Source: Eledone cirrhosa (lineage: Eukaryota). From it: 64,000 nt of DNA. The translations under genes and the position numbers were made by a program. Positions 10,031 through 60,391 of this stretch are shown here, one piece after another; within the stretch, counting starts at the first letter, position 1, and every line of letters begins with the position of its first letter. The stretch spans positions 23,064,001 to 23,128,000 of the forward strand of contig OZ024753.1 in NCBI GenBank assembly GCA_964016885.1, given 5' to 3'. Below the pieces are notes generated by a model. It worked only from the letters and a program-made list of their open reading frames with translations, searched no databases and was not told where the DNA came from.

Positions 10031-10036
10031 AATATA

Positions 10037-10084
<48 letters not shown>

Positions 10085-12984: not shown

Positions 12985-13021
<37 letters not shown>

Positions 13022-13657: not shown

Positions 13658-13688
<31 letters not shown>

Positions 13689-13821
13689 CATACAAAAATA
13701 TAAAAATATAAGCGCACACACACACACACACATATAAATACGTAAACACACATATACACACATAGCTAAACAATTATACACATGCAAATACGTATATATC
13801 AAAAGCACGCACAACCAAATA

Positions 13822-13937
<116 letters not shown>

Positions 13938-14285
13938 AATATAAATAAATACACACGCACACATATACAGATATATATACACACATATATATATATATAT
14001 ATACACACATACACGTACACATACACACATGCATACACATACACACACATATACATGTGTGTATGTGTAAAGCTCAGTATTAGATAAGACAAATGAACCT
14101 TACATAAACGTATATATAGTAGTAAAGTAATAAAGCAACACAAGGCAATTAATCCATTCACCAGAGGTTTCTTAAAAGCAAAAAAGTTTCCTTCAATCTT
14201 CAGAATGAAAAAAAAGCCTGGTTTATCCACATATACATACATATACACACACAAATATACAATTATATACACACATACACACACG

Positions 14286-14353
<68 letters not shown>

Positions 14354-14359
14354 AATATA

Positions 14360-14397
<38 letters not shown>

Positions 14398-14612
14398 CAT
14401 ATATATACACACAAAAATACATACACATACACATAGGTATGTGAAGGGCAAAACAAAAAGAATATATGGGGGGAGGGGGCCATAAGAGAAGGTAAAATAT
14501 AAGGGGAAGTAAGGGAGAAAAAAAATTTTCAAAGGCCCTCGCAAGTAAGGTATGGGATCTCAAGGATAGTAATATCCCGTACTCTATTGATTGGTCTATA
14601 TTAGACCATTCG

Positions 14613-17444
<2,832 letters not shown>

Positions 17445-17551: not shown

Positions 17552-17667
<116 letters not shown>

Positions 17668-17731
17668 GTAGATAAATCTACCAAGAGTTTACGGTAGTGT
17701 CCAATCCGTATGAAGAACTCTCCCAAAGTAT

Positions 17732-17813
<82 letters not shown>

Positions 17814-18672
17814 GTGTGGTATGTGTGTGTTTATGTATATATGCGTGTGTGTGTATGAATGTATGTATATGTGTGTATATATGTATGTATATATATATGT
17901 ATATGTATGTATATTTTGTCTGTAGATTATAAACATACAGATACATTAGCCCTAAATTTTTATATTTACATACACTTTTTCGACATGCGTATGCATGTGA
18001 ACATATATTTTTATGCATATCTGTGAACGAATTTACTTACATATATACACACACCTAACTGTATTTTCTTGATGAATTTTTATGTATTTCATTGGTCTAT
18101 TTAAAATCTGTTCCCAAACAGACCTGTAATTTTGAATTGTTGTTATTATCAATAAATATACTTCATTATTTCTGAAGACAGCATATATATGTGATGGTAT
18201 GTATATTCTCCTTGATAGTTTGTATAATTTTGTACATAGATCTTTTGAATATGCATGCCAATTCTAACACATATATGTCCTAGAAACGATCGTAAAATAA
18301 TGAACTTTTTTTGTTTAATATAAGGAACTGTTTCTTTGTTTTATTCATTATTTTTTTAATATTTTATATATATATATATATATAAATATATATATATATA
18401 TTTGTGACAGAAACAAAATGGCGGAGGACAGAAAAAAGGAAAGGCACAGAAACAAAGAAAGGAATCCCCAGTCACTGAAGAGGTCACAGAGTGTGTTACG
18501 AAAGGACTATGACTATATATAAACAACTATCTGGTTGTGGAACCAACCAACCAACCAGAAATTTATAAGTTTGTAGATTTGTAAATTTATAAATTTATAA
18601 ATATATAATAAATTGAAGTGAAAGCAACTGGTGCGTGTGTTTCTTATTGGGAACATGACCCTCCCAAAGTAT

Positions 18673-19114: not shown

Positions 19115-21131
19115 AGTTATATTTAAATTGTTGGGTTACAACTAGTAAATATTTATAACTGATATAAAAGCACTCGACAAGTATTTGGAGTATATTTACA
19201 ATATTAAATAAATGGAAACTATATTTATAAAACCATATTTATTTCATTATATATATTTCAGGGATATCATATTAACAATATGTTATGCCTTCCTCAGACA
19301 AAATACAATATAAACAGTTTTATACATAAATAGATTCGACATACCGTAACAACATCGACTTCTATTTGAAAAGGTTGATTTGGCAGTGAAAAAAATGTAC
19401 ACAGAGAGAAAGAAAGAGAGAAAAAAAGAGAGAAAAAAGGAAAGAAAGACAGAATACGAAGAAAAAGAAGAAAAAGAAGAAATGCATGGAACAAAATAGA
19501 GAGATGGAAAGATAGATAAAGAGAAGAACTTCATGTAAAGAAACAGAGATATATATATATATATAGAGAGAGAGAGGAAATAGAGATAGATACATATATA
19601 TAGAAAACTAGGTAGTGGGACGTCTGTTGGGTAAACGTATCAATGATACATTTATTTATTTATTTATTTATTTAGCTCTAGTATTAATGTAAGGGAGATA
19701 TATGGAGAGAAACCAGCTGTTATATATATAGAGAAAAAATATAGAGAGAGAAAAAATTCAAAAATAACCAGACATAGGCGAGGCGTAAAAACCCTATGTT
19801 TTAATGTAGAGGTATTAGTATTTATAAAAACCAGCCACTATATTGTAAATATCAGTATTCCTGAATGAGACATGTATCCATAATGTGTGAAAGTTAATGA
19901 TCTTATGTTTAGCTTTTAAAAAAAAAATTCATATGTTTATGTGATAACTACAAACATCTATGTGAATTTACATGATCAACTCTGCAAACCCTAGGTTCAC
20001 GGAAAACATTCTCATTGTGGTATAAAAATTTAAGTATACATATATGTGTATATATATACACACAAATATATATAGAGTCAATATTACTATTCCTGTCTTT
20101 ACTCTACAAGATTTTCTATCGAGCAGAAATAGAGAGCAGATTTCAATATACTAATAAAAATATATATCAGAAACAAAACTAAAAAATAACAATAATAATA
20201 ATAAGTAATAATAAAATAGAAAACTAAAAAATATTACGAAAGAATATTACATATTGAAAATATTAAAAATAAAAATATTAGAAAATACTACAATAATAAA
20301 AATAAAAATAAACCACAAAGATCAACCCTTCAAAATTAATTGACAATATATTGCCAAGTTCATTTATTAGCATCAGACTCGAAAAACAGATAAAGCCAAA
20401 AATTATCTATCAAATCGCATCTAGCAAAGATCATTTCAAAAAGTTTAGGATGCCCATTTGGTCTACATGTGTTCTTATATTTAATATAAAAGTTTATCTA
20501 GTGTAACGTTTATTCGAAATATTTGGAGCATCAACTTTTAGGGTAGCTTAATTTTTCATGAAGAATGTTTAAATAAAAATAAAATAAAAATAAAAAGAAT
20601 AAAAAGAAGGAATCAAAGATTTATCGGCTAGTTTCCCATATAATTATAAATCAAAGTAAATATACTACATTTTAAATTTAAATTTATAATTAAACGTTGA
20701 GTTTAATCTATGTTTGCAGCAACTGAATAAATTTGTCCGTAGATTAAGGGAATTTTTAGATTTTAGTATAAAGAATATCTCCTCTGCGCAGAGGTCACAT
20801 GTCTCAGAGGATGAATTAAAAGGAATCCCTCTTGAGACTATATTCCAAGCCGTCGAATATCTAACGTTATCTAGCTTAAGTTGCCAGAGTACGCCTGATA
20901 GTGCTGTTGAAGATTTTTTGCTTGGATCTGTGAAAGAATTCTTGTGGTTATTATAGCGAAGTTTAAATTCCGTCGATGCGGAACCGACGTAGTTAAAAGA
21001 ATTAGAGGAGATATTCTTTATACTAAAATCTAAAAATTCCCTTAATCTACGGACAAATTTATTCAGTTGCTGCAAAAATAGATTAAACTCAACGTTTAAA
21101 TATAAATTTAAATTTAAAATGTAGTATATTT
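19111..21131 (-). mobile_element. Family A copy 2: EN C-terminus, 3'UTR and tail, with short 5' inversion (21004-21131)
   Basis: YVGSAS..CDLC..CCKH ORF end nearly identical to 4935-5275. Confidence 0.9.
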
Positions 21132-22571: not shown

Positions 22572-22954
22572 AGTTGAAAAAAATGAAAACGAAATTTCAT
22601 TTCTCACTCTTAGTATGGCACTTACTTTTTCAACTTATCGTTTTCGGTATGCTTGACCGATTTAACTCACTCAATATGCAAATTAGGCTGCTCAGCCATT
22701 AATTTTCATATGGAAAGTATTTACTTTCGAACGTTCAACTATCTGGCAGATGGGTAAACGGTGCTGATGATAGCTAACAAGCTTGAAACTAGTACATCGT
22801 TCCTGTGTCAGTGTTGAACAAAAAGGTGACGTGGATGCCTTAACACCGTATGGCATAAATTCAGGCTGTTCAGTTTGTTGACAAACGAACAAAGCGGCGT
22901 TATAATAAGCGTCCGCAAAACTGATGCGTGCATATATGTATGTGTACCTGTATG

Positions 22955-23041
<87 letters not shown>

Positions 23042-23465
23042 GCTACTGTACGTCTGTATACATATATGTATGTACGTATACATACATACTTACATTTAAG
23101 TAAGTGCCATACTAAGAGTGAGAAATGAAATTTCGTTTTCATTTTTTTCAACTTATTGTTTTCGGTATGCCTGACCGATTTAACTCACTCAATATGCAAA
23201 TTAGGTTGATCAGCCGTTAATTTTCATAAGGAAAGTATATACTTTCGAACGTTCAACTATCTGGCAGATGGGTAAACGGTGCTGATGATAGCTAACAAGC
23301 TTGAAACAAGTACATCGTTCCTGTGTCAGTGTTGAACAAAAAGGTGACGTGGTTGCCTTAACACCGTATGGCATAAATTCAGGCTGTTCAATTGGTTGAC
23401 AAACGAACAAAGCGGCGTTATAATAAGCGTCCGCTAAACTGATGCGTGCATATATGTATGTGTAC

Positions 23466-23532
<67 letters not shown>

Positions 23533-23976
23533 TGCTACTGTACGTCTGTATACATATATGTATGTACGTATACATACATACTTACGTTTAAGTATGTGCC
23601 ATACTAAGAGTGAGAAATGAAATTTTGTTTTCATTTTTTTCAACTTATCGTTTTCGGTATGCCTGACCGATTTAACTCACTCAATATGCAAATTAGGCTG
23701 CTCAGCTGTTAATTTTCATAAGGAAAGTATATACTTTCGAACGTTCAACTATCTGGCAGATGGGTAAACGGTGCTGATGATAGCTAACAAGCTTGAAACT
23801 AGTACATCGTTCCTGTGTCAGTGTTGAACAAAAAGGTGACGTGGTTGCCTTAACACCGTATGGCATAAATTCAGGCTGTTCAGTTTGTTGACAAACGAAC
23901 AAAGCGGCGTTATAATAAGCGTCCGCTAAACTAATGCGTGCATATATGTATGTGTACCTGTATGTATATATGTATG

Positions 23977-24057
<81 letters not shown>

Positions 24058-24519
24058 TGCTACTGTACGTCTGTATACATATATGTATGTACGTATACAT
24101 ACATACTTACATTTAAGTAAGTGCCATACTAAGAGTGAGAAATGAAATTTCGTTTTCATTTTTTTCAACTTATCGTTTTCGGTATGCCTGCCCGATTTAA
24201 CTCAGTCAATATGCAAATTAGGCTGCTCAGCCGTTAATTTTCATAAGGAAAGTATATACTTTCGAACGTTCAACTATCTGGCAGATGGGTAAACGGTGCT
24301 GATGATAGCTAACAAGCTTGAAACTAGTACATCGTTCCTGTGTCAGTGTTGAACAAAAAAAAAAAAAAAAAAAAAGGTGACGTGGTTGCCTTAACACAGT
24401 ATGGCATAAATTCAGACTGTTCAGTTTGTTGACAAACGAACAAAGCGGCGTTATAATAAGCGTCCGCTAAACTGATGCGTGCATATATGTATGTGTACCT
24501 GTATGTATATATGTATATG

Positions 24520-26096: not shown

Positions 26097-26321
26097 ATTT
26101 CGTTTCTGAATTTGTTTAGCAAGATTCTTTATCTGAAATCGTGTGTTGAAACCGATATTGTTATACTTTGGGAGGGTCATGTTGCCAATAAGAAACACAC
26201 GCACAACCAACCAACCAGAAATTTATAAATTTGTAAATTCATAAATATTTAATAAATTAAATTGAAGTGAAAGCAACTGGTGCGTGTGTTTCTTATTGGC
26301 AACATGACCCTCCCAAAGTAT

Positions 26322-26328
<7 letters not shown>
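26097..26328. mobile_element. Family G terminal inverted doublet
   Basis: Matches 41080-41190 and 43070-43203. Confidence 0.8.
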
Positions 26329-26893: not shown

Positions 26894-27820
26894 AGTATTT
26901 ACGTATCTAGAAAGAGAAAAAAAGGGGGGATGGGTGATACATATAGTTATTTGCCAAGTAGCGTATGCCAAAGGTGCTCGATACTAGTGCCGGCAGTATT
27001 AAATATTCGACATGTTATATTTAGTGGGCTAGAGAGTTAGCAGAGCGTAAGCACGTGGGAAAGTAAAAAATCGGAGAATAGACCGTTAAAACAAGTTTAT
27101 TTAAAATATCACCTCCGTACGTTTCGCCCAGTTGGGCCTCTCAAGGGCATCAATAATCACAAGTGTTCCTTATATTGCTCGGAAAGAGTTTTGGGGGTTA
27201 AATCCGCATCAAGGTTCATTGCTCGCAAAAATATCTTGTTTTGATTTTGCAGCAGGTCAAGGGAGGTAACTCTGGCCGGTGTTAGGACAGTCTTTCCCGG
27301 ACAAATTTTTTTTTTTTTTTGCCGCATCCGTTTGTCTGAGGCTGGGTTTGGTATGCAAGGATTGTTTCCTGGGTGTTATTTTGAAACGCCTGCCCGCCGG
27401 GGTGTTAAGACTTGTTGCAGGGAGAACCAGTGTACTATTTCACTCTACATCCTTAACCCATCTGAAGAAGGATATTTTTAGGCGATGTGTACAACTTATT
27501 GCTGTTTCAGCTCTGCTGTTGATTAGCTCGTGGGGTGCAGTTATGATGTGGTAGAGCTCCATGAGGCAAAGATCGCATTTCCACTTGAAGTTGTACGGTG
27601 CAGCCCTGCCGACAATCTCCCAGCGAGTGGAGAAGGTGATGTTTAAGTCCTTTAGTGATGTGATGTAGTCCGCGAGCGAAGTGGAGTGCCTTAGTTTTCT
27701 ATTTGCGAAAGAGTGGAGATGTGTTCGAAACATAATTTTGAACGGGCCGGAGGTGGCCCCTATATAATGTTTAACGCTATTGTGGCTAGAAATAGTGCAT
27801 GTATATATAACCCTATCAGT

Positions 27821-28064: not shown

Positions 28065-32013
<3,949 letters not shown>

Positions 32014-38027: not shown

Positions 38028-38175
38028 AATAAACGAAGCTAAATTTTAATCATTTGACTTTTATTTAACTTTATTTTACACTACTCCGGAGTAACCAAAC
38101 CAACCTGCGCACTTCGTCGAGTGCTCCAGCCTGCATACTGAGGTGTTGGTATACAACCAACATAAACTCAAAATC

Positions 38176-38730: not shown

Positions 38731-38781
<51 letters not shown>

Positions 38782-38782
<1 letters not shown>

Positions 38783-39329
38783 GTAGATAAATCTACCAAG
38801 AGTTTACGGTAGTGTCCAATCCGTATGAAGAACTCAATGTATTCCGGATATCATGGAAAGAAGAGATGTAATGAAAAATCACTTTCGGTGAAAGATAAAC
38901 GGAATACAGAGTCAAGATAAAATATTAAACAAATAATGAATAAAACAATGAAACAGTTCCTTATATTAAACAAAAAAAGTTCATTATTTAACGATCGTTT
39001 CTAGGATATATATGTGTTAGAATTGGTATGCATATTCAACAGATCTATGTACAAAATTATACAAAATTATACAAACTATCAAGATTAAATATACATACCA
39101 AACACACATATATGCCGTCTTCAGAAATTTCTGAAGACGGCATATATGTGTGTTTGGTATGTATATTTAATCTTGATAGTTTGTATAATTTTGTATAATT
39201 TTGTACATAGATCTGTTGAATATGCATACCAATTCTAACACATATATATCCTAGAAACGATCGTTAAATAATGAACTTTTTTTGTTTAATATAAGGAACT
39301 GTTTCATTGTTTTATTCATTATTTGTTTA

Positions 39330-39338
<9 letters not shown>
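38782..39338. mobile_element. Family F pLTR spacer-less palindrome (~38919-39338) plus tail module
   Basis: Centre ...GTCTTCAGAAA|TTTCTGAAGAC... near 39127. Confidence 0.85.
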
Positions 39339-39467: not shown

Positions 39468-40316
39468 CAGTATTTTCCGTTGTGTTGTAATATAAATATT
39501 ACACACAGTAGATTATCAGCTCACGTAGAGTTTGCTCGACGGTTCCAGTTGTAGTTCCAAAAGTAATCCGGAGAAAAATAGAAAGATTTGAATGGATACA
39601 GTTTAGTTGAAAGGAATTTATTGACACGTGTTTCTATAACAGTTACATAACCTAAAACAGCTATCTACAAACTTTTAGTTATGCAGACATTCAATATTTC
39701 AATGTTATTATTTACTGTCATTTCATCAGAATAATATTACTGAGGACCTATTTAGTTTTTATATAGAATATTAGGAGGGAGGGGTGAAGTTGTTAGAAGA
39801 ATAGTTGAAGGAGTGGTTTTTCGATAGCAGTGAGAATTCTTGGTGGCAGTGAGTAATCAGATTCCCATCTGTTGTTTTGACATTTTTTATAGAATATATT
39901 ATTGGTTATTTTTCTAAATCTATAGAAGGATTAGAGATAGTAAAGATATGCGTGGTTGGTTTTGTGTTTGCACTTAATTAACATTCAGACTTAAATTTTT
40001 CTTTCAAGTGTACGTATCCTTTCACCCACGCTTTCACACACAAATATATTTGCACACCTCTACAAAATACATATACTCACAATTCACATATTCATACTTA
40101 CATATATATACACATGCATACACATATATATACACACATGTATTCATGTACATACATACGCGCTCATGTGTATACATTTTCATACTCAACTTATCTTTAT
40201 ATACACACGTATAGACACACACATATATACATACATACTCTAGTCCATGTGTACACACATACACATACTTACACATCCATATACACATATATACATACAT
40301 ATATATACATATATAC

Positions 40317-41079: not shown

Positions 41080-43201
41080 ATTTCGTTTCTGAATTTGTTT
41101 AGCAAGATTCTTTATCTGAAATCGTGTGTTGAAACCGATATTGTTATACTTTGGGAGGGTCATGTTGCCAATAAGAAACACACGCACCAGTTGCTTTCAC
41201 TTCAATTTATTATATATTTATAAATTTATAAATTTACAAATCCACAAACGTATAAATTTCTGGTTGGTTGGTTGGTTCCACAACCAGATAGTTGTTTATA
41301 TATAGTCATAGTCCTTTCGTCACACACTCTGTGACCTCTTCAGTGACTGGGGATTCCTTTCTTTGTTTCTGTGCCTTTCCTTTCTTCTGTCCTACGCCAT
41401 TTTGTTTCTGTATGTGTGTTGTGTGCTCAGTTTGCGCATGCGCCACATCCGGGTGTCTGTGTTTATTTGTGTTCATTTATCTATTTGTTTATTTATTTAC
41501 ATGTTGTTGGTTGGTTGTTTGTTCTATGTGTGTGTGTGTTTTCATTTTGTCCTTAATTGTAAGTTGTGATGTTGCTGTTCCACTCATATTTTCTATTTAA
41601 TTTTGGTTGTAATTCTTTTATGCTTACTGCCTAAACATTGCATCTTTTCTGTGTGTGGATTCTATTTTTATTAATATGTTCTCTAACTTACTCTTGTGTT
41701 CTATCTTAGAATGTTGGTAGAGTACAGATGATTCTTTATTATCTTGAAGGTCTCGCCAGTGTTCATTTATCCGTTCCCCTATACTACGAGCTGTCTCACC
41801 TATGTACACTATATTTTTGTTTCTACATTGTCCTTCAGTACATCTTATGCTATACACTACATTTCTAGTTTTACAGTTAATATGGGGGCTTATTTTACAG
41901 GTTATACATTTCTTATCTATACATGAGGGTCTTTGGAACGGGTATGTCTTGCTAATAAGTGTTTTTACGGAGGTACCTGGTCTTTCTACTATCTTAATAT
42001 TGAGTTTATGTTTATTTAGGGCCCTTCTAAATTTGTAGGCTAGTTCGCCTATAGGGGTTGTATTGATAAACATTACACTCTGGTATTTATTGCTATCATA
42101 CCATGAGTTTATTCTATTGGCCTTGTTCCTAGTTCTTTCTATTCTATTCCAAAATTTGCTCCTGTACAAGGGGCAGGTCCCATTTATGTCATTATTTACC
42201 ATTTTTTCCCATTTGGTTCTGGCTCCTCTATACACTGTGATTCTATCTCTCTGATTGTAGCCAGAGAACTGCATCCGGTGGATGAAGTGTTGTATGTGTC
42301 TCTCTAGTTCTTCCGGGTTGCACATGCGGGACACCTTTCTCATCACCCGTACCAAATCCGCAATCAGTATGTTGATTTTGGTATGGTCCGAAATGGCCGA
42401 GTTTCGGTGGATCAGATGTTTGGAAGTCATGGGTTTGGCATAATGGGAATGGAGGATTTGTTTTTGGTTGTTAATGGTATCTAACCAGAGCTCTGTGTCT
42501 AGTACAGGTAATCGATGGTTGGGGTGTCTACTTGGGTAGTCTATAGTAACTCTAATGATCTCGTGGATGGAGTTTGCTATTTGCTGGATGCTTTCCATTG
42601 TGTTTTTCTTTAGTTCCTGACTGTTCTCTAGTGGGGGTGTTTTAACTACGATGTTTATATCATCTACGTAGCGGGAGTACATTATCAGGGTTAAGCTGTC
42701 TTCTAATTGTTCTTTAAGTTTAAGTTGGAATTACAACCAAAATTAAATTGAAAATATGAGTGGAACAGCAACATCACAACTTACAATTAAGGACAACATG
42801 AAAACACACACACACATAGAACAAACAACCAACCAACAACATGTAAATAAATAAACAAATAGATAAATGAACACAAACACACACAGACACCCGGATGTGG
42901 CGCATGCGTAAACTGAGCACACAACACACACACAGAAACAAAATGGTGTAGGACAGAAGAAAGGAAAGGTACAGAAACAAAGATAGGAATCCCCAGTCAC
43001 TAAAGAGGTCACAGAGTGTGTGACGAAAGGACTATGACTATATATAAACAACTATCTGGTTGTGGAATCAACCAACCAACCAGAAATTTATAAGTTTGTG
43101 GATTTGTAAATTTATAAATTTATAAATATATAATAAATTGAAGTGAAAGCAACTGGTGCGTGTGTTTCTTATTGGCAACATGACCCTCCCAAAGTATAAC
43201 A

Positions 43202-44046: not shown

Positions 44047-44079
<33 letters not shown>

Positions 44080-45115
44080 AAATATTAAAAAAATAATGAA
44101 TAAAACAATGAAACAGTTCCTTATATTAAACAAAAAAAGTTCATTATCTAACGATCGTTTCTGGGATATATATGTGTTAGAATTGGCATGTATATTTGAC
44201 AGATCTATGTACAAAATTATACAAAATTATACAAACTATCAAAATTAAATATACATACCAACTCATATATATGCCGTCTTCAGAAATAATGAAATATATT
44301 TATTGATAATAACAACAATTCAAAATTACAGGTCTGTTTGGGAACAGAGTTCAAATTGATCAATGGAAACACAAAAAGTTTATACAGTTAGGTGTGTGTA
44401 TATATGTAAGTAACTTCGTTCACAGATATGCATAAAAATATATGTTCACATGCATACGCATGCCGAAAAGATGTATGTATATACAAAAATTCAGGGCTAA
44501 TGTCTCTGTATGTTTATAATCTACAAATAAAATACATATACGCATATAAACATAAAAATAAATATATACATATTCATATACTCACACATATACATACATT
44601 CACACACACACGCGCATATATGCATAAACATACACACAACTACGAACATACATACACACACACACTCCCACACACATATATGTGTATATACTATTATCAT
44701 AAGCATATGGACATTAATGCGCGCACATAAACACTGCCACACATATTTAGATCCAGATACAGAAAGTAGGTGAGGGGGGGGGGGCGGAGAGGTCAGTATT
44801 TACTGGTGTCAGCAAACTGCCTATTTATAAATGTATCTATAAATTTAGAAATAAAAATAAAAAGAAAAAAGAAAAATATTAAGAAAATATATATATATAT
44901 ATAAACAAGTAAAATATAAAATATACATCGATATACATACATATATATATATATATATATACATACATATACATACACATATACATAAACACATACATAC
45001 ACATACATATACATACACACACCAACCATATACATACACATACACATACACACACGCGCATACATATAGAGACACATACATATACACATATAAATACATA
45101 GACATATACATATAT

Positions 45116-45175
<60 letters not shown>

Positions 45176-45227
45176 ATACCACATACATAAATACACTCAT
45201 GTATATACACATATACACATACATACC

Positions 45228-45273
<46 letters not shown>

Positions 45274-45274
45274 C

Positions 45275-45314
<40 letters not shown>

Positions 45315-45373
45315 ACACATACATGTACACATACACATATATAAAGATATATATATATACACACACATATATA

Positions 45374-45420
<47 letters not shown>

Positions 45421-45675
45421 TATACATACATACATATATATACTCATACATAGAATACATATATACACACACACATACACACATACATATACGCATATAT
45501 ACACATACATACACATCCATGTATGCGTATACACATACAAACACAACCACACGCTCACACAACTCAGACATACATAAATAAAGGGATATACATACACATA
45601 TATACATATATAAATAGAGATATATATACACATATAAATATATACACACATACACACACACACACATATACATAC

Positions 45676-45706
<31 letters not shown>

Positions 45707-46113
45707 CATACACACACACATATATATACATATATATATATATATACATATATATACATATATATAAAAATAAAGAAATAAAAAAAATGTTTGTTTAATA
45801 TAAGGAACTGTTTCATTGTTTTATTCATTATTTTTTTAATATTTTATCTTGACTCTGTATTCCGTTTATCTTTCACCGAAAGTGATTTTTCATTGCATCT
45901 CTTTTTTCCATGATATCCGGATTACATTGAGTTCTTCATACGGATTGGACACTACCGTAAACTCTTGGTAGATTTATCTACATAATTTTGCTCCTATTTT
46001 CACGGAAATATTCGTATTTTTGTACTGTATGTGTGTGTTAATTTTATATTTATGTATATACATATATATGTATGATTTTGTAAACCCATATACAGTTAGT
46101 TGAGCTCTTTCAA

Positions 46114-48575
46114 TTGTCCATCATCCATATCACAATTGAAAAACAATACTTGGGAACCTCTTTAAAGAATATACCAATACCTTCTAAGGATCACTTCTTA
46201 CTCCTTATGATTCAAAAAACCAACCAATTTATCAGAAGAGTTAGATGGAGGGCCTACCACTTCGATAAAAAATCTAAATATGCAGATAGGAAATATATGT
46301 ATGATTTCAATACTTACAAGAATCCACCACACAACTCTTTACTTGAAGACTTTGAGAAAGACCTTTTTGATTTAATTAAACACCTCAAATTTAAGAAGTA
46401 TAAATCTGTCTTTCAAAAGGACCTTGATTCTACCCTATTGGACCTAAAAAAGTCTAAAAAAATCCATGTCCACTCGGACAAACTGGTAACTTGTATCACA
46501 TGGATATTGAAGATTATAATGAGTTCATATATAAAGAACTCAGGAAAAATTATAAAAAATCTAATAATGCGTCACTCACCAACATCAACAATAAAACACA
46601 CAACATAGTAAAAAAACTAAACATTGAAGATAGAACTGAACCTTTGGCATTGAAAAGACCACACTTCAACCTGAAGGATCATAAATCAAACTTTAACTCA
46701 AATCCTTCTATAAGACTTATATGTCCCTCCAAATCTGATATTGGAATAATTAGCAAAAAAATTTTGGATAGAGTCATCCCACAAATAAGAAAACACGTTA
46801 ATTTACCACTCTGGGAAAACACTTCCCAGGTAATTAACTGGTTTAAAAATATTAGATGTAAATCTTCTGCTTCATTTCTACAATTTGATATAGATAATTA
46901 CTATTCTTCTATATCACCTATACTCCTGAACAAAGCATTGATATTTGCTAAAAATAGATCTAACTTAACTTTGGATGACATTAATATTATTACACATGCT
47001 AGACTAACACTTATTGAATTTCAGAATGAATACTGGACCAGAAACACATATAGTAATCTATTTGATATTACTATGGGTTCAAGCGATTCCGCCCAAATTA
47101 CTGATCTTGTGGGCCTCTTTCTCCTTTTCAACATAAATGCCTCCTTTCCCCACCTTAAAGGTGGTTTATATCGTGATGACTGTCTTCTTCTTTCCAACAA
47201 CCTTAGCCTTTCAGAAATAGAAAAAAACAAAAAGCATATTAGAACTTTCCTTAAAGACTATTATAGTCTTCATATTACTTTTGAAAAAACAAGTAAAGTA
47301 GTAAATTTCCTAGATATAACTTTAGACTTAGCTACGGGTATCTACCAACCTTACCATAAACCCAACCAAAACTTACACTACATACACTCACAATCTAATC
47401 ACCCTAAATCTATCCTTAAAAACCTTGCATATAATATATCAATTAGAATTTCTAACCTTTCTTCTAACCAAGATGTATTTGATAAAAATGCGACCTTCTA
47501 TAATGAAGCTCTAGATAGAAGTGGCCACAAAAATAGATTAGAATATATACCTTCTACTAAAAATAAAAATACTATAAACATACAACCTAATATTACCAAC
47601 AAACACCAAATGAAAAGTACACACCTAAATGCCACCCACACTATACCCCAAAATACCAACAACTCTTCTAATATAAAGTATAGTAACTCTCAAAAAACTA
47701 CTCATCATACAACTCTAATAAATGTTAATAATAAAACTCCTAATAAACAAGATAAAACACCTAAATCTATAAATCTAACTAAAAATGTGCGTGGTGAGAT
47801 CATTAACATTAATCCTCCTAGTAAACATCACGATACAACCTATAAAAATAATAAACAACATAGAAACCGTAATAGACGAGTTACTTGGTATAATGCTCCA
47901 TTTAATTTACAAATTAAGGATAATATTGCTAAAAAAATTTTTTATATCCTAGAGAAAAACTTCCCGCCAAACCACAAATACCATCAAATCTTAAATAGGT
48001 CTACAGTTAAATTCTCATACTCAACAACCAATAACATAAAACAAAATATAAGTGCCTATAATGCATATAAATGTAAGAATACCATAAGTATACCACCAAT
48101 ACATCAAACTAACCATAATATCTCCTCAAATACAGAATTAACGAAAGGTTGTAACTGTAGAAACAAAGCAAACTGCCCATTAAAAGGAAATTGTCTTGTT
48201 AACAACATAGTTTATAAATGTAATGTTAAAACTAAAGATTCTATTTGCTCATATATAGGAGCTACTTCTAACAATTTTAAGGTAAGGTTTAATACCCACA
48301 AACATAGTTTTAAAAATGCCGCACTGGCTAATACAACATCTCTAGCAGAAAAAATCAATAGTTATAAAAATAAGAATATAGAATATGATATGACCTGGAG
48401 TGTGCTCAAAAGAGCCACCCCTTATCAAAATAATAGAAATGAATGTAGATTATGTTCCCAAGAACTATTTGAAATAATGAAATCTAAGGATATCCTATTA
48501 AATAAACGACAGGAATTAATTATATCGTGTAATCATAAACTAAGAAAAACATTTAAATATTATAAACCTAATTAA
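46114..48575 (+). pseudogene. PLE RT + GIY-YIG ORF (family F), one frameshift near 46485
   Basis: SLKNIP, RVRWRA, SDK, LKDHK, QFDIDNYYSSI, GLYRDD, CNCRNKANCPL, YIGAT, CRLC, SCNH; no in-frame ATG at the predicted start. Confidence 0.93.
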
Positions 48576-48906
48576 TAACATTATTTTAGAAATTAATATA
48601 TAATTTAATTTAAATGTTAGTTAACCTATAAATTTAATTTAATTAAAATTCTACTACAGATGAGATTATAAAATATTGTGTAATCATAAATTGTGAAAAA
48701 CTTTTAAATATTACTAATATATACTTCGTAAATTAATTTGGTTAACCTAAAAATTTAATTTAATTGGCTTAAAATTAAAATCCTAATACAGATGGATTGC
48801 AGAGTGTCATGTAATCATAGACTGAGATAGGTTTTGGATGTATACCTAGTTAATATATTCTTTGCAATTTTTGAAAAAATATGTATATGTATATATATAT
48901 GTATGT

Positions 48907-48944
<38 letters not shown>

Positions 48945-49610
48945 ATGTATATATATATGTGTATATATTAATTTTAATTTCTGTTTACCTATAATTATAT
49001 TCTACTATAGATAAAATACAATATCTGTTTTAATTATTATAAACCTAATTAACATATACTATAGAAATTAATATATAATTTTTAATTTAGTTAACCTATT
49101 ATTTATATTCTACTACCGATGTAATATTTTATTTGGTTTTTTTCCCTATTACTTAATTAATTTCCTAATATTGATACCATAACGTTAATAATTTTAATTT
49201 AGTTATACTATAGTTAATACTCTACTACTATTTAACTTCAAAATTCCGCTTCAAATATTATAAACCTAAGTAATATACACCTTAGAAATCAATATATTAA
49301 CTATCTTTAATTTAGTTAACCTATAATTAATAGTCGACTTATATTAAAATGCATAATTTTGCCTTCTTTCTTACATTTCCTAATACTGAAACTACTATGT
49401 AAACACATATTATGATCTAAATGCAGATTAATATTCTATGTTTCTTGAAACCTATATTTACTATAATCCCCCCCCTCCCCCCTCCCTATTATTATTTGTA
49501 TTTGTAAGCGTGGATGTATGTATGTATATGTAGGTAGGTATGTATGTTTGGGTGTTTGTATGTGAGTATAAAAATACATATGTGCGCATGTAAATAAGGG
49601 TGTATGATTG

Positions 49611-49655
<45 letters not shown>

Positions 49656-49812
49656 ATGTATATATATGTATCTATGTATTTATGTGGGTATATGTATGTA
49701 TGTATATGTATGCGCATGTACACGTCTATGTGTATATGTGTGTATGTGTATATATGTACGTATATGTGCATGTATATGTGAGTGTGTGTATATTTATATA
49801 TATATCTATATG

Positions 49813-49846
<34 letters not shown>

Positions 49847-49891
49847 TGTAGTTGATGTGTGTATGTGTATATATATGTATGTATCTATGTG

Positions 49892-49948
<57 letters not shown>

Positions 49949-50385
49949 GTATATATTTATATATATGTATGTGTATGCATATTTGTCTGACTGGGTGTAT
50001 TAATTAATTAATTTATTTATTTATTTTATTTTATTTTTTTATTTCTTTATTTTTATATATATGTATATATATGTATATATATATATGTATATATATGTGT
50101 GTGTGTATGTATATGTATGTATGTATGTATGTGTATGTATATGTGTGTGTATGTATGTGTGTATATATTTATATGTGTATATATATCTCTATTTATATAT
50201 GTATATATGTGTATGTATATCCCTTTATTTATGTATGTCTGAGTTGTGTGAGCGTGTGGTTGTGTTTGTATGTGCATACGCATACATGGATGTGTATGTA
50301 TGTGTATATATGCGTATATGTATGTGTGTATGTGTGTGTGTATATATGTATTATATGTATGAGTATATATATGTATGTATGTATA

Positions 50386-50445
<60 letters not shown>

Positions 50446-50635
50446 GTGTGTGTATATATATATATCTTTATATATGTGTATGTGTACATGTATGTGTGTA
50501 TGTGTGTATATATATATATATATATATGTATATGTATATATATATATGTATATATATATATACATATATATATGTGTGTGGGTATGTATGTGTATATGTG
50601 TATATACATGAGTGTATTTATGTATGTGTGTATAG

Positions 50636-50669
<34 letters not shown>

Positions 50670-50867
50670 TGTGAATGTATGTATATATGTATGTGTGTAT
50701 ATATATGTATATATATATGTGTGTATATATGTATATGTCTATGTATTTATATGTGTATATGTATGTGTCTCTATATGTATGCGCGTGTGTGTATGTGTAT
50801 GTATATGGTGTGTGTATGTATATGTATGTGTATGTATGTGTTTATGTATATGTGTATGTATATGTAT

Positions 50868-50908
<41 letters not shown>

Positions 50909-51566
50909 TATCGATGTATATTTTATATTTTACTTGTTTATACATATATATATATATATTTTCTTAATATTTTTCTTTTTTCTTTTTCTTTTTCTTTTTC
51001 TTTTTCTTTTTCTTTTTCTTTTTCTTTCTAAATTCATAAATACATTTATAAATAGGCAGTTTGCTGACACCAGTAAATACTGACCTCTTCCCCCCCCTCA
51101 CCTACTTTCTGTATCTGGATCTAAATATGTGTGGCAGTGTTTATGTGCGCGCATTAATGTCCATATGCTTATGATAATAGTATATACACATATATGTGTG
51201 TGGGAGTGTGTGTGTGTATGTTTATTCGTATATGCGCGTGTGTGTGTGAATGTATGTATATGTGTGAGTATATGAATATGTATATATTTATTTTTATATT
51301 TATATGTTTATATGCGTATATGTATTTTATCTGTAGATTATAAACATACAGAGACATTAGCCCTGAATTTTTGTATTTACATAAATCTTTTCGGCATGCG
51401 TATGCATGTGAACATATATTTTTATGCATATCTGTGAACGAAGTTACTTACATATATACACACACCTAACTGTATAAACTTTTTGTGTTTCCATTGGTCA
51501 ATTTGAACTCTGTTCCCAAACAGACCTGTAATTTTGAATTGTTGTTATTATCAATAAATATATTTC

Positions 51567-51714
51567 ATTATTTCTGAAGACGGCATATATATGAGTTGGT
51601 ATGTATATTTAATTTTGATAGTTTGTATAATTTTGTATAATTTTGTACATAGATCTGTTAAATATACATGCCAATTCTAACACATATATATCCCAGAAAC
51701 GATCGTTAAATAAT
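51567..51714 (+). ncRNA. Type I hammerhead ribozyme with ~115-nt stem II, family F
   Basis: ATTATTT-CTGAAGA-(115 nt, partly self-complementary)-GAAA-CGATCG-TT-AAATAAT. Confidence 0.8.
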
Positions 51715-51911
51715 GAACTTTTTTTGTTTAATATAAGGAACTGTTTCATTGTTTTATTCATTATTTTTTTAATATTTTATCTTGACTCTGTATTCCGTTT
51801 ATCTTTCACCGAAAGTGATTTTTCATTGCATCTCTTCTTTCCATGATATCCGGATTACATTGAGTTCTTCATACGGATTGGACACTACCGTAAACTCTTG
51901 GTAGATTTATC

Positions 51912-51983
<72 letters not shown>

Positions 51984-51992: not shown

Positions 51993-52783
<791 letters not shown>

Positions 52784-52818: not shown

Positions 52819-53535
52819 AGTTAAATAAAAGTCAAATGATTAAAATTTAGCTTCGTTTATTACTGCTATATATATTTCAGTGACAGCCATCTTTGGCTGT
52901 GACCTCTTCAGGCAGTTTGAATTAGTATGGTATAGACAAGTACATATGTTGTTTAGGTGTATGATATTGTCAATACTCTGATATGCCCAGTTCCTTGCTG
53001 GGTTGTTAATTCACTGGGGAACTGGAGTCATATGAATTCAAACAAACGAATTTTCGTGTCACAGGTCCCCTTCTCCTCTCATTGGTCAGTTATTAGTGTT
53101 GTCATTGTTGGAGTTAGCTTAAAAATTGATAAAATGGTAGAAGGGACAAGGTGTTGAAGGAACAAAATATCAAAAAAGGGGACCTGTGACACGAAAATTC
53201 GTTTGTTTGAATTCATATGACTCCAGTTCCCCAGTGAATTAACAACCCAGCAAGGAACTGGGCATATCAGAGTATTGACAATATCATACACCTAAACAAC
53301 ATATGTACTTGTCTATACCATACTAATTCAAACTGCCTAAACAGGTCACAGCCAAAGATGGCTGTCACTGAAATATATATAGCAGTAATAAACGAAGCTA
53401 AATTTTAATCATTTGACTTTTATTTAACTTTATTTTACACTACTCCGGAGTAACCAAACCAACCTGCGCACTTCGTCGAGTGCTCCAGCCTGCATACTGA
53501 GGTGTTGGTATACAACCAACATAAACTCTAAATCT
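52819..53535. mobile_element. Family D pLTR inverted doublet, tail on right arm
   Basis: Matches 32221-32585 and 37815-38176. Confidence 0.88.
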
Positions 53536-53687: not shown

Positions 53688-56022
53688 GCAAAAGTTTTAT
53701 TTAAAACTGTTGGGTTACAACGAGTAAATATTTTATAACTGATATAAAAGCACTCAACAGTTTCTGGAGTAGGTTTACGATATTAAACAAATGGAAACTA
53801 TATTTATAAAACCATATTTATTTCGTTATATATATTTCTGGGATATCATATTAAAAAATAGATCGATAATAGACAAACTAACCAAAATAACAACAATTTT
53901 AATTACAGTAACAACTTTAACAACTATAATAGAAAGCACTACAATAATTCCAAAAACCAGAAAAGAAATAGAACTAGAAATATAATATGGTTTGCCCCCC
54001 CCCCCCCCCTTTCTCACTAAACATTAAAACCCACATCGCTAAACTATTTTTTAATGCTCTTGACAAACGCTTCCCTAGAACACATAAATATCACTCAATT
54101 TTCAATAGACATACTATGAAATTAACGTACTCGTCCACCAAAAATTTAGCACAAAATATTAATAGAATAAATAATAGGAATCTAAAACCTAGCCAAAATA
54201 CCGAAAATAGCCTAAACAATATTCAAGTAAAAAAACTGTAACTGTAGAGATAGATCTAAATGTCCGCTAAATAACAATTGCTTAGTTAAAAATATAATAT
54301 ACAACTGTAATGTTAAAACTGATTTAAATTCTTTTAATTATGTTGGTTCCACCTCGACAGAATTTAAACTTCGCTATAATAATCACAAAAATTCTTTCAC
54401 GGATCCAAATAAAAAATCTTCAACATCGCTGTCAGGCTTACTCTGGCAACTTAAACATGATAAAGTTGGATATTCGATGGTTTGGAATATAGTCTCAAAA
54501 GGGATTCCTTTTAATTCCTCTTCTGAGACATGTGACCTCTGCGCGGAGGAGATATTCTTTATACTAAAATCTAAAAATTCCCTTAATTTACGAACCAATT
54601 TATTCAGCTGCTGCAGACATAGATTGAACTCAACTTTTAAATATAAATATAAATTTAAAATGTAGTATAAAATGTAGTATATTTACTTAAGATTTTTAAC
54701 TATTTATGAAACTTGGCGATAAATCTTTCGATTCCTTCAATTTTTTTAAAACCTTTCTGCATGAATATATAATTAATGAGATTAAATAAACTACCCTAAA
54801 ATTGGCGATGTTCCCAATCTTTTGAATAAATTTTTAAGCTGGATAAACTTCTATAATAAATATAAGAGCATTTGTAGAATAAGTTTTGAATGATTTCTGC
54901 TAAATAAGGCTTGGTGAACAATTTTGGTTTTGTTTGCTTTTGATTCTGATTTTATGTGACTGATATGCGTGGCATACTATGTTCTCTTGCGTCCATAGAT
55001 ACTCTGTGGAGTGACGAAGATATTCTTGGCGTTTTTAATTTTTAATATTGATATCTGTTGTCTATTCTATGCTTGATCGATAATCATGCAAGTGAGGCAG
55101 GAATGTTACTTTAAATGTTAATGTATATCTTATATATTTTATGTCTATATATATGTATATATGTATGTAAATATGTGTAGGGTGGAATCTTTTGTAACGC
55201 AATGAAGATTTTCATGAAATATAAGAATCTGTGGAGCATATCACGTAAGTTCACATGTGTGTCTATAATTATCAACTTGAATTTGAGATAACCATCTCTT
55301 TTCTCTTTTTTCTTTTTTTTCATGAGAATGCATATATACTTATGTTTGAAGTTTTGTCTCAGATTTTGCTTATAGACCTAAGAATTTTTAAACTAAGCAT
55401 GGGGTCATTTTTTTCACACATTATGGATATGTGTCTCATTCATGAATACTGATATTTACATTATAATACCTAATTCATAAAAATTGATAATTCAAATGGA
55501 TGAGACATAATATATTTTTAATATATTTTAAATATATCATCTTTCTTTCTTTTTCTCCTCTACACTGGACGTGATTTATGTGTCGGCTAGTTTAACTGTA
55601 TCCCTTCCCTCCTTAACCTCTCACATATACGATGATCATCTGTCCAAAAGCTGCCTACTATATTTTTTCGCTTCCTCAATGTATTTTTCTCTCTCCCATA
55701 TCTCCTTCTCTCTCTATCTCGCTCTGTTGTTTTTCTTTACATACATCTCTTCATCTTCTTTTTTATTTACATACATCTCTTCATCTTCTTCTTTTCATCT
55801 TCGTTTTTCTTTCTATATAACTGTCATAACAGTTTCACTACCAAATCAACTTTTTAAATGGAAGTTGCATTATTATAAGGTATGTCAAAATTATTTATAA
55901 AACAGCTTATGTATTGTATTTTGTCTGAGGAAGGCATACCATATTTTTAATATGATATCCCAGAAATATATATAACGAAATAAATATGGTTTTATAAATA
56001 TAGTTACCATTTGTTTAATATC

Positions 56023-56024
<2 letters not shown>
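53688..56024 (+). mobile_element. Family A' 3' fragment (frameshifted EN ~53860-54665, 3'UTR, HHR 55918-55981) with inverted tailed arm 53688-53858
   Basis: WF.PPFS, CNCRDRSKCPL, YVGST, CDLC; EN close to family A, 3'UTR diverged. Confidence 0.9.
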
Positions 56025-56079
<55 letters not shown>

Positions 56080-56146
56080 AATATATATATATATAAATAT
56101 ATAAATATATATATATATAAATATATATATGTATAAATATATATAT

Positions 56147-56183
<37 letters not shown>

Positions 56184-56212
56184 AATATATAAATATATAT
56201 ATATATATATAA

Positions 56213-56243
<31 letters not shown>

Positions 56244-56250
56244 TTTTTTT

Positions 56251-56865
56251 GTTACAAAATATCTGGTAGAGAATGTTGAGAAGCCAGAGGGGATCACTAA
56301 TGTAGGCGGGAAGCCGCTGGAATTGGTTGAGGACTTCCTGTATTTGGGAGTAAAGATTGGGAATACGGAGGATGATGTGGTTGAGAGGAAGAGCAAGGCC
56401 TGGGCGGCGTGCCACAGCTTGAGATCGGTGTGGAAGTCGGACCTTCGTAGAGACCTGAAAATCTGCCTCTTCATTGCTGTAGTGGAGTCTGTGCTGCTGT
56501 ATGGGTCTGAGACTTGGACACTGACCAAGAAACTCACTCAGATGGTGGATGGGTGCTACACGAGAATGCTGAGGATGAAAAACTCAGAGCTGTATGGGAG
56601 CATCCCAAAAGTCTGCTCAAAAGTGACACAGAGGAGACTGAGATTGGCTGGACATGCTCACCGACATCCAGAGTTGACATTGCACTCAGTGCTCCTTTGG
56701 GAGCCCCTACATGGACACACTAGAAGAGGAAGACCAAGGTTAACATATGTTGATGCCATAAGGACAGACACTGGTCTGTTGGAGATACAGGATATGGCAG
56801 CGATAATGAGGGACAGAGACCGCTGGAGAGAACTCGTCCATGGATCTCGGGAATTTTACCCGCCT

Positions 56866-56868
<3 letters not shown>
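56251..56868 (+). pseudogene. 3' fragment of an RTE-type non-LTR retrotransposon ORF
   Basis: [50 protein letters not shown]; no GIY-YIG domain. Confidence 0.85.
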
Positions 56869-57058: not shown

Positions 57059-58251
57059 ATATTGTTATACTTGGGGAGGGTCATATTTGCGTAATATTGC
57101 CAGAATTAATAACAGAACACACTGACTGCTTGGTTGGTTTTCGCTTCTCGCTGTCTCTTATATCTGCGATCTAACTTACTCGGTCCTCAATGTTGCCATT
57201 GACTGACCGACGGTCAAAAATAATACAGATACAATATAGACACAAACACATATATATAGTTTACATAATTTACATAAATCTTTCGTTGCACATCTGCAAC
57301 ATCGTCAGTGGTGTTATATTTTTTTCCTCCTGTTGTGTTGTATGTCTACGCCATTTTCTTTATTCAGTCTGTCTATATATTTATTTATTTATTTGCTTGT
57401 TTGTTTATTTTATTTTGTCTTCTTTGCGCATGCGTTTGCGTGTGTGTATAGTGTTATGTGTGCTGTGTGACTAGTGTGTATAGTGTTGTGTCTGCTGGGT
57501 GACTAGTGTGTGTTTATGTTTAGATATTAAACATAGGAATGACCCAGCAGATAGGCAAATCGGAGAGGCCAGTGAAATAGAAATTAGAAGACCATAGCTA
57601 AACAGAAAGAATGAGTGGAACAACAACAACACCCAAACAAACAACACTGACCTAAGAGAAGTATAAATAAGTAAATAAATAAAATAAAATAAAATAAGAT
57701 AAATAAATACATACACAAGCACAATAACAACAAGCACATAAACACACACTAGTCACCCAGCAGACACAACACTATACACACTAGTCACACAGCACACATA
57801 ACACTATACACACACGCAAACGCATGCGCAAAGAAGACAAAATAAAATAAACAAACAAGCAAATAAATAAATAAATATGTAGACAGACTGAATAAAAAAT
57901 GGCGTAGACATACAACACAACAGGAGGAAAAAAAATATAACACCACTGACGATGTTGCAGATGTGCAACGAAAGATTTATGTAAATTATGTAAACTATAT
58001 ATATGTGTTTGTGTCTATATTGTATCTGTATTATTTTTGACCGTCGGTCAGTCAATGGCAACATTGAGGACCGAGTAAATTAGATCGCAGATATAAAAGA
58101 CAGCGAGAAGCGAAAACCAACCAAACAGTGAGTGTGTTCTGTTATTAATTCTGGCAATATTACGCAAATATGACCCTCCCCAAGTATAAAAATATCTGTT
58201 TCGACACACGATTTCATATAAAAAACCTCGCTAAACTAATTCATCGCCGCT
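57059..58251 (+). mobile_element. Non-coding pLTR inverted doublet (family J, related to G)
   Basis: Arms ~57059-57520 and ~57737-58194; end TGACCCTCCCCAAGTATAA as in G; HHR CTGACGA-GTTGCA/TGCAAC-GAAA at ~57941-57983. Confidence 0.8.
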
Positions 58252-58376: not shown

Positions 58377-59447
58377 AAAAATTAGAATTGTAGCTCTGAA
58401 ATAGCAATATATATATGGATGTAAATATAATGTATTTTGCAATACACTTTATGCTTAATTAAAAGCATGTTGAAGACCGTAAGCTATTGTTTTAAAGTAG
58501 TGACAAATTCACTCACTTCGATCTCAGCAAACAGGAGGAGATAAGCCGACATGACATGTTTCGCTTTTGTTGAAGCTTATCAAGGCCAACTACCCCACCC
58601 GTCTGCTGAGATCAATGATGTTATATTCTTATAGAAATCTAGTAAATAATCAGGAGCTGATTATGCAGAGCGGTTGTTGGTCAGGCAGAAATTAAAAATT
58701 AGAATTGTAGCTCTGAAATAGCAATATATATATGGATGTAAATATAATGTATTTTGCAATACACTTTATGCTTAATTAAAAGCATTTTGAAGACCGTAAG
58801 CTATTGTTTTAAAGTAGTGACAAATTCACTCACTTCGATCTCAGCAAACAGGAGGAGATAAGCCGACATGACATGTTTCGCTTTTGTTGAAGCTTATCAA
58901 GGCCAACTACCCCGCCCGTCTGCTGAGATCAATGATGTTATATTCTTATAGAAATCTAGTAAATAATCAGGAGCTGATTATGCAGAGCGGTTGTTGGTCA
59001 GGCAGAAATTAAAAATTAGAATTGTAGCTCTGAAATAGCAATATATATATGGATGTAAATATAATGTATTTTGCAATAAATTATATTTAAATATAATGTA
59101 TTTTGCAATACATTATATTTACATCCATATATATATTGCTATTTCAGAGCTACAATTCTAATTTTTAATTTCTGCCTGACCAACAACCGCTCTGCATAAT
59201 CAGCTCCTGATTATTTACTAGATTTCTATAAGAATATAACATCAATGATCTCAGTAAACAGGTGGGGTAGTTGGCCTTGATAAGCTTCAACAAAAGCGAA
59301 ACATGTCATGTCGGCTTATCTCCTCCTGTTTGCTGAGATCGAAGTGAGTGAATTTGTCACTACTTTAAAACAATAGCTTACGGTCTTCAAAATGCTTTTA
59401 ATTAAGCATAAAGTGTATTGCAAAATACATTATATTTACATCCATAT
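58377..59447 (-). mobile_element. Retrozyme-like 317-bp tandem repeat (family K, ~2.2 units) plus an inverted unit
   Basis: Unit starts 58381, 58698, 59015; HHR (U3-A8 core) at 58544-58589 and 58862-58906 (-), 59271-59318 (+). Confidence 0.8.

Positions 59448-59467: not shown

Positions 59468-60391
<924 letters not shown>

Follow-up and report, generated by a model that had tools for sequence, protein, structure and literature searches.

Conserved tandem hairpins next to the two 3' ends of a Hydra-clade Penelope-like element, candidate docking sites for its own reverse transcriptase

Penelope-like elements (PLEs) are the sister group of telomerase. The Hydra clade of PLEs was defined by Craig et al. 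2021 (PMC8557442), who listed its hammerhead ribozymes, reported tails of 30–40 nt and credited these tails to resolution by the endonuclease; the portions of that text used here make no mention of hairpins. Frangieh et al. 2024 (PMC11167929), in the part drawn on here, described Poseidon PAc of the green anole, whose reverse transcriptase (RT) begins at two internal sites that delimit the tail and depends on RNA about 50 nt past the second of them; both DNA strands are cut and extended, and a dimer was modelled. Our comparison with the literature also drew on parts of PMC4209133 and bioRxiv 2026.07.22.740005. Internal starts and tails of PLEs are known already; what is new here, as far as we searched, is a conserved twin hairpin (each copy is called a module below), a putative UA priming patch, and a rule by which inverted insertions carry one 3' end of each kind. 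These findings bear on a question flagged in PMC11167929 and PMC8557442, as far as these papers were used, that of start choice, tails and inverted arms in PLEs.

The window analysed, a stretch of 64,000 nt, is AT-rich and packed with (TA)n arrays and PLE fragments. The main insertion of family F (44077–51917) consists of an inverted, 5'-truncated arm on the minus strand (44077–45786), which ends against (TA)n at the first of the two 3' ends described below (site A) and is 90.7% identical to reversed 50034–51780, followed by a direct arm (45790–51917). The direct arm has a 195-nt repeat at each end and an RT-endonuclease ORF inside (46135–48575, plus strand). Its upstream repeat, part of the pLTR (45790–45984, plus strand), is 99.5% identical to 51723–51917; the downstream repeat holds a further copy of module 1 (51785–51865, plus strand), and the insertion ends at the second site, B (51910–51917, plus strand), before (TA)n. 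A hammerhead ribozyme of type I, whose stem II is long and stem III palindromic, was read from its core positions and fold at 51564–51717 on the plus strand; its stems I and II fold with a z-score of -5.95, the cut is predicted after 51707, and there was no Rfam match to it among the matches listed. The direct arm starts 15 nt downstream of the predicted cut, which in this single copy would fit a 5' end made by the ribozyme. Three further F insertions are present in the window: one inverted with the B end on the left and the A end on the right (38780–39338), one inverted with the opposite order (52021–52471), and one at 17665–18367 whose short B arm (17665–17720) and A arm (17822–18367) are split by the end of another element and a TA array.

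The F ORF was assigned from motif reading, homologues and reads. It contains a YRDD core and the C-terminal order VY..YIG..R..H..E..N, which is kept in 32 homologues; a full-length homologue comes from the octopod Argonauta hians. An RWR motif is found in the N terminus of F, RWK in family G and the homologues, and RW in the consensus. The homologue consensus also has ADKT (DKG to DKT), a motif that in the window copy is split by a frameshift. The remaining marks are CNCRNKANC, a CxCx5C linker, one cysteine between VY and YIG, and CRLC and CNH, which fit the CxxC and CxH of the clade around the conserved E and N; CCHH is absent. The frameshift, near 46479, sets the window copy apart from most reads (205 of 232 and 150 of 167 differ from it), and the start codon of this copy (46137) deviates from nearly all reads; both breaks are copy-specific or assembly errors. 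The element has the marks of Hydra-clade PLEs, an RT with a C-terminal GIY-YIG domain, a hammerhead with enlarged stem II in the 3' repeat and insertion at (TA)n, and it shares with the clade, as described in the consulted part of PMC8557442, RWx, DKT, CxCx5C, a C-terminal GIY-YIG-type domain without CCHH, the 3'-repeat hammerhead, (TA)n and a one-end tail. Judged by its motifs rather than by an RT tree, family F is a Hydra-clade PLE, and the element itself is an ordinary member of that known clade. Assignment to the Naiad/Chlamys PLEs, which have an N-terminal endonuclease and no canonical hammerhead, was rejected, as was a Naiad carrying a SECIS element: the endonuclease is C-terminal and a hammerhead is present. 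Pfam gave no match for the F protein, a sequence search of the PDB with it returned only a weak match to a retron RT (E 0.026), and homodimer prediction for residues 1–460 of one homologue (P0004), run without an alignment, scored 0.00. Asparagine-rich insertions lie between RT and endonuclease at 47560–47860, and also in the homologues P0004 and P0006; they resemble insertions reported in rotifer Penelope elements (PMC3846280, used in part).

Both 3' ends of F lie just upstream of a module. Site A, a UA-rich patch on the plus strand (45841–45847; ATTTTAT), ends 4 nt ahead of module 1 (45852–45932), which has an ACUC/GAGU stem, a UU bulge and a long inner stem. Site B, also UA-rich and on the plus strand (45977–45984; TCTACATA), ends 5 nt ahead of module 2 (45990–46105), which has a GCUC/GAGC stem, a UU bulge and a branched interior. 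Because the last 3 nt equal the (TA)n target, the real junctions lie at 45844–45847 and 45981–45984. The folding of both modules beats shuffled sequences, and these large modules favour the sense strand (z-scores of -3.99 for module 1 and -3.55 for module 2, vs -2.47 and -1.02 in antisense). The initial annotation had placed the stem strands exactly (ACTC 45852, TTGAGT 45927, GCTC 45990, TTGAGC 46100), and all eight F copies that it cited meet (TA)n at the two words, with coordinates accurate within 3 nt.

That annotation had also predicted two sharp peaks of 3' ends rather than ends scattered over all TA dinucleotides, and reads from four runs placed on 45790–46700, two of them raw RAD-seq runs of a separate study, bore this out. 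In the two RAD-seq runs, exits into (TA)n were concentrated at 45847 (425 and 445 reads) and 45984 (570 and 508 reads), out of 3450 and 3474 placed reads, RAD reads being uneven and over-sampling some loci; site A reads had just 58 nt of reference to their left. The A and B ends were similarly frequent, and depth past 45984 dropped about 13-fold, in run X15 from about 1240 to about 90. There are 38 TA dinucleotides in 45800–46130, and no other TA was a (TA)n 3' end among the best six loose-end rows listed per run, of which the lowest had 60 and 98 reads. Contigs under a second organism label (X4) end at the same two F sites. The position rule, by which copies end a few bases ahead of a module and two modules go with two ends, is confirmed in these reads and in the other organisms treated below; the tandem pair is not special to F. 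The stronger claim, that the motif dictates where cDNA starts, is an inference, since in sequence data priming on RNA and cutting by the endonuclease next to a hairpin of single-stranded DNA would look alike.

In comparison with PAc, as described in the part of PMC11167929 drawn on here, F likewise has a hammerhead followed by two putative internal starts that bound the tail, and AT-rich targets. In PAc, RT begins within the ORF, at an AC-rich stem-loop reported to lack homology to the target, whereas the putative starts of F lie before the ORF, in target-matching UA patches, each with its own conserved copy of the hairpin. The binding motif of PAc is given there only as the 'first 172 nt', and by eye the GCUC/GAGC module is absent from it. 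A different bulged hairpin is visible by eye in the PAc template 3 nt past the second start (PMC11167929, in part), and we note it as a lead only.

The module is a bulged stem, RCUC-Y…R-UH-GAGY, with a 4-bp outer stem, a 2-nt bulge on the 3' side and a variable inner stem. Covariation was analysed in 71 distinct candidates upstream of ORFs, anchored on the outer letters alone, with 5000 shuffles. The next three inner pairs are Watson-Crick in 65 of 71, 44 of 71 and 33 of 47 sequences, against shuffled means of 37.6, 20.5 and 13.0 (maxima 50, 34 and 25); the eighth pair, which comes after those three, is not above the shuffles (15 of 37 vs 9.7). Pairing requires a bulge of exactly 2 nt (67 of 71 candidates, vs 0, 2, 8 and 20 for bulges of 0, 1, 3 and 4 nt), and the bulge letters are UU in 44, UC in 16, UA in 8 and other in 3. 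Two-sided changes in an alignment of 28 sequences numbered 38 vs 14.7 when shuffled, and none of 500 shuffles was as high, although these shuffles ignore relatedness. The four outer pairs are invariant in that alignment and so uninformative for structure there; the outer pair varies elsewhere, being A-U in F, H, J and L and U-A in one related locus (L071). The sixth pair of module 2 is unpaired in 16 of 27 cells of the alignment. The stem is followed by ACU in 63 of 71 candidates, a figure to which the anchor itself contributes. Of 93 compact modules, 29 have the better fold in sense and 48 in antisense, with a mean of -1.9 kcal/mol as DNA vs -4.2 as RNA, and G-U pairs (12) vs A-C (6) give a weak strand signal; for compact modules, folding energies do not pick out RNA over single-stranded DNA, or the sense strand. 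Rfam, with its ribozyme, SECIS, miRNA and epsilon families, returned sub-threshold microsatellite matches only for 45790–46140, and no match at E ≤ 1 for the 10 of 87 related loci searched. The possibility that the module is a broken or degenerate hammerhead was discarded, as the CUGANGA and GAAA core is absent and a real hammerhead lies 42–71 nt upstream. No description of this hairpin was found in the literature searched, which held few of the subscription papers. Two regularities were seen: the 3' strand of the stem and the next bases often form a short interrupted palindrome, AG-NN-CT (loci L001–L087), and window modules closed by A-U have, as its two middle letters, the reverse complement of the pair found in modules closed by G-C.

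Ten other families in the window have a bulged stem behind their insertion end, 2–6 nt past the last shared base: G, G' (with a deduced end), H, J, K, L, M and three near 50, 1750 and 3262. Family G, on the minus strand, carries modules 1 (12601–12581) and 2 (12534–12460) ahead of its ORF, the pair spanning 12460–12601. Module 1 lies at 16426–16444 in H (minus strand; also 19172–19191 and 53752–53770), 38083–38122 in J (plus; also 53442–53481), 28221–28261 in K (minus; also 39534–39574), 31171–31195 in L (minus), 26976–27046 in M (minus) and 1750–1791 in a further family (plus), with others at 50–79 (minus), 3262–3306 (plus) and 9705–9725 (minus). No module 2 was seen in the window for H, J, K, L, M and three more families. 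A descriptor built on the window gave 26 matches there, seven of them away from ends, vs a mean of 3.4 and a maximum of 9 in 100 shuffles. As a side observation, the ORF of family G (9656–14600) lies between related hammerhead repeats, G upstream and G' downstream, that are 82–85% alike; this arrangement may be a recombinant or template-switch product.

We then applied the descriptor out of sample to 87 related loci, 77 from metagenome contigs (from the best 80 of 383 relatives) and 10 from genome bins; no relatives were found in viral contigs. The genome-bin loci (L078–L087) are Hydra-clade elements with TA arrays in ten contigs of bacterial bins and are very likely animal host DNA. The descriptor matches the coding strand in 63 of 87 loci and the opposite strand in 11 of 87, and a stricter compact descriptor gives 119 sense vs 7 antisense matches; the antisense matches come mostly from neighbouring elements in opposite orientation. 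When the loci were grouped at 80% RT-core identity, 43 of the 61 RT clusters had the module and 25 a tandem pair; the other 18 were without a strict module, many contigs being short or cut. Upstream of the 39 ORF starts with more than 230 nt of preceding sequence there were no modules in 4, one in 9, two in 23 and three in 3 (nested calls). The 28 module pairs have a start-to-start spacing of 55–83 nt. Of the 66 modules that are first or unclassed, 53 have a hammerhead core upstream, at a distance of 42–71 nt in every case but one. The conserved layout is hammerhead, UA patch, module 1, UA patch, module 2 and ORF, and two modules in tandem are the normal arrangement in this clade. About 30 nt separate the end of module 2 from the start codon in F, and in the loci module 2 starts 55–91 nt before the conserved N-terminal motif. 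F is peculiar only in its large loops (81 and 116 nt vs 16–34) and its long tail (137 nt vs module spacings of 55–83 nt); tails in the window measure 85–158 nt, against the 30–40 nt given in the part of PMC8557442 drawn on here.

Junctions in these loci follow the same rule in most cases. There are 72 TA junctions, of which 25 have a visible continuation in their own locus: in 14 a module starts within 0–8 nt, in 4 a variant module was seen by eye (L056, L064 and L071 twice), and in 7 there was none. TATA or ATAT occurs at most 12 nt upstream of 53 of 91 modules, vs 5 of 91, 5 of 90, 4 of 89 and 12 of 84 in controls, so that each module has a short patch able to pair with a nicked (TA)n end. 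Published consensuses agree in part: in File S7 of PMC8557442 (a paper used in part) the module is plain by eye in 3 of 6 consensuses, Hydra-1_Ajap (twice), Hydra-2_Ajap and Hydra-2_Amil, the hosts being a sea cucumber (twice) and a coral, while Hydra-1_Crog, of a sea louse, has a variant with a C-G for U-A swap, and in the remaining two the module was not seen by eye. A search for six 9-mers of the module 3' side in the supplement of that paper found 7 places, 4 of them in Hydra consensuses and 3 without a matching stem by eye; line breaks and variants may hide more. A covarying motif of 16–27 nt, present twice, spans cnidarian, echinoderm, arthropod and other hosts. The module rule is real, holds outside the window and is broader than the initial annotation saw.

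The two ends are also used together. Clean inverted insertions of the module-bearing families in the window have one A and one B end in 14 of 14 cases (F 3, H 4, J 2, L 2, K 1 and two other families 1 each), for which the chance under free choice is about 6e-5; A and B, which the initial annotation took as alternative ends, are thus not independent of each other. There is one A+A case (3493/7625), which lies within a 2.06-kb inverted duplication that takes in flanking DNA; when it is counted, the result is 14 of 15, about 5e-4. In the loci of one other assembly, 4 of 4 inverted insertions are A+B by eye (L081, L084 and L085 twice). The inner ends of the inverted arms are scattered, as expected of 5' truncation. 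The inverted duplication itself (2397–4494 / 6665–8703, 96.8%) takes in the end of a family H copy, a TA array and the complete insertion next to it, and came about either when read-through captured the flanks or when the assembly folded back on itself. Three arms of F terminate at the hammerhead's 5' strand (39127/39128 and 52223; equivalent to 51565–51570), and the 39127 junction is a near-perfect palindrome, one of two such F junctions. The module is absent from the window PLE families N and P, which nevertheless have two paired ends, and three of their insertions likewise pair them. These non-Hydra families (41081–41149, 26098–26326 and 57062–58250), of which N has a GIY-YIG match in the Pfam search, have two 3' ends about 60 nt apart that pair; N and P share a different conserved sequence just past the first end, possibly a positioning signal of their own.

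Telomerase RNA, the R2 3' UTR and hepatitis B epsilon are structured RNAs that place an RT at a set point of its template; in telomerase the primer also aligns with a short complementary stretch, and epsilon is a bulged stem-loop. Each of these has one site, whereas F has two in tandem, one per DNA end; the likeness is in how they would work and is drawn on position alone, Rfam giving no match. In the same manner, each module is probably an RNA docking site for the element's own RT-endonuclease, with (TA)n priming on the UA patch. From the structure, position and end pairing described above we infer binding, priming and a form of the template that would act as follows. The RT-endonuclease would bind the bulged stem, its endonuclease would nick (TA)n, and the released 3' end would pair with the UA patch 2–8 nt upstream of the stem; RT would then begin at the patch and copy upstream, and the module that had guided it would remain outside the copy. 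The 'tail' would correspond to the stretch between sites A and B, and in F its 137 nt tracks the module spacing of 138 nt, the tail being long because module 1 is enlarged. A full copy that ends at B (e.g., 45790–51917) calls for a template that carries the 3' UTR upstream of both modules, which could be a tandem read-through RNA, a circle made by the hammerhead or a template jump. In inverted insertions, priming would take place at A for one target end and at B for the opposite one, with the cDNAs then joined head to head. Poseidon PAc is a precedent for this reading (PMC11167929, in part). Against it speak the junctions without a module (7 of 25 in the loci), the 18 of 61 clusters without a strict one, the compact modules that do not favour sense RNA in folding, the weak G-U signal, the outer pairs that are invariant in the alignment, the eighth pair at shuffle level, the often unpaired sixth pair of module 2, the PAc start that lacks homology to the target and such a stem, families N and P with two paired ends and no module, the families for which module 2 was not seen, and the one A+A insertion.

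In L1 twin priming both target ends prime on RNA, leaving a 5' inversion; there the second start is variable and the arms do not overlap, while in F modules would fix both starts, and the overlapping arms form inverted repeats. A more specific form of docking, which we put forward only tentatively, is programmed double-ended priming, in which one RNA with two docking hairpins would take two proteins and prime one DNA end at each. Hints of a single RNA come from B arms that halt at or just inside site A: the L086 copy starts at the TA that immediately precedes module 1 and finishes at B, just ahead of module 2, one L085 arm begins 4 nt into module 1, and 72 reads, probably of one locus, stack at 45848. 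If true, double-ended priming would explain together why PLE insertions have a tail, why they have it at one end only and why their arms are inverted head to head. The L086 copy (3532–6094) is a full-length direct copy that runs from site A to site B plus one unit.

The same ends could be cut rather than primed, if the module worked as a single-stranded DNA hairpin to which the GIY-YIG endonuclease binds on a longer cDNA or tandem intermediate and then cuts a few bases upstream, possibly at the UA patch. In the sources as far as used, this accords with the ascription of the tail to endonuclease resolution by Craig et al. (PMC8557442), with the D. virilis endonuclease, which required the tail sequence to cut (as cited in PMC11167929), and with the bacterial GIY-YIG enzyme SsnA, which binds a single-stranded DNA hairpin through both its sequence and its structure, accepts altered loops and cleaves immediately upstream (PMC11893778); module folding, which separates neither strands nor polymers, is compatible with it as well. 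We nevertheless regard cutting as unlikely, for loops of 16–116 nt and a one-sided bulge exclude a plain double-stranded site, the compact modules are weak as DNA, and the sole Penelope-like protein tested starts RT internally on RNA at genomic ends (PMC11167929, in part). Module 2 ends so close to the start codon, and the UA patch is conserved on its own, that the hairpins could instead serve translation or packaging of an uncapped, ribozyme-cut RNA, with the ends set by UA patches pairing with (TA)n alone. This is rather improbable: many nearby UA-rich patches, a long one inside module 2 among them, are not ends in the rows listed, and the distance from end to stem is kept at 2–8 nt for both modules and across families.

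With an antisense RNA as template, the hairpin would act as a barrier, comparable to the template boundary helix in telomerase RNA, and A and B would be the ends of synthesis. A template of that kind was proposed earlier for head-to-head palindromes (PMC3846280, in part), near-perfect palindromes occur at two F junctions, and compact modules fold as well in antisense as in sense. Against it, the hammerhead and modules keep a fixed order on the coding strand, the ends precede the stem at a target-matching UA patch and the inner ends are scattered as for 5' truncation, the large modules of F fold far better in sense, and the template used in vitro was sense RNA (PMC11167929, in part), all of which makes an antisense template very improbable. 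An assembly artefact or a chance match in an AT-rich, repeat-dense window, with its large perfect inverted repeats and long TA arrays, has hardly any likelihood. The descriptor was indeed written after the window had been seen, and not all its matches there are at ends, but the same two ends are seen in raw reads of a separate study and in the contigs under the second label, the motif recurs out of sample and in published consensuses, and the window matches far exceed those of the shuffles.

For PLE insertion, the module offers a minimal substrate with exact predictions. It is also a simple boundary rule for annotating these elements in genomes, and could serve as a compact RNA handle in any work on such enzymes as tools for insertion at (TA)n.

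Other elements were observed in the window. The region 58386–59444 contains a tandem repeat of about 317 nt with an inverted arm and sub-threshold Rfam matches to hammerhead HH9 (31 bits vs 52), and looks like a non-autonomous retrozyme-type element. Another tandem repeat (22578–24496 and 59593–60361), about 500 nt long, is flanked by TA, has inverted arms and lacks the module; it is probably a non-autonomous Penelope-like family. Finally, an RT fragment of another retroelement, RTE-like by eye and with a weak DUF6451 match, lies at 55891–56868, where it is split by a TA array.
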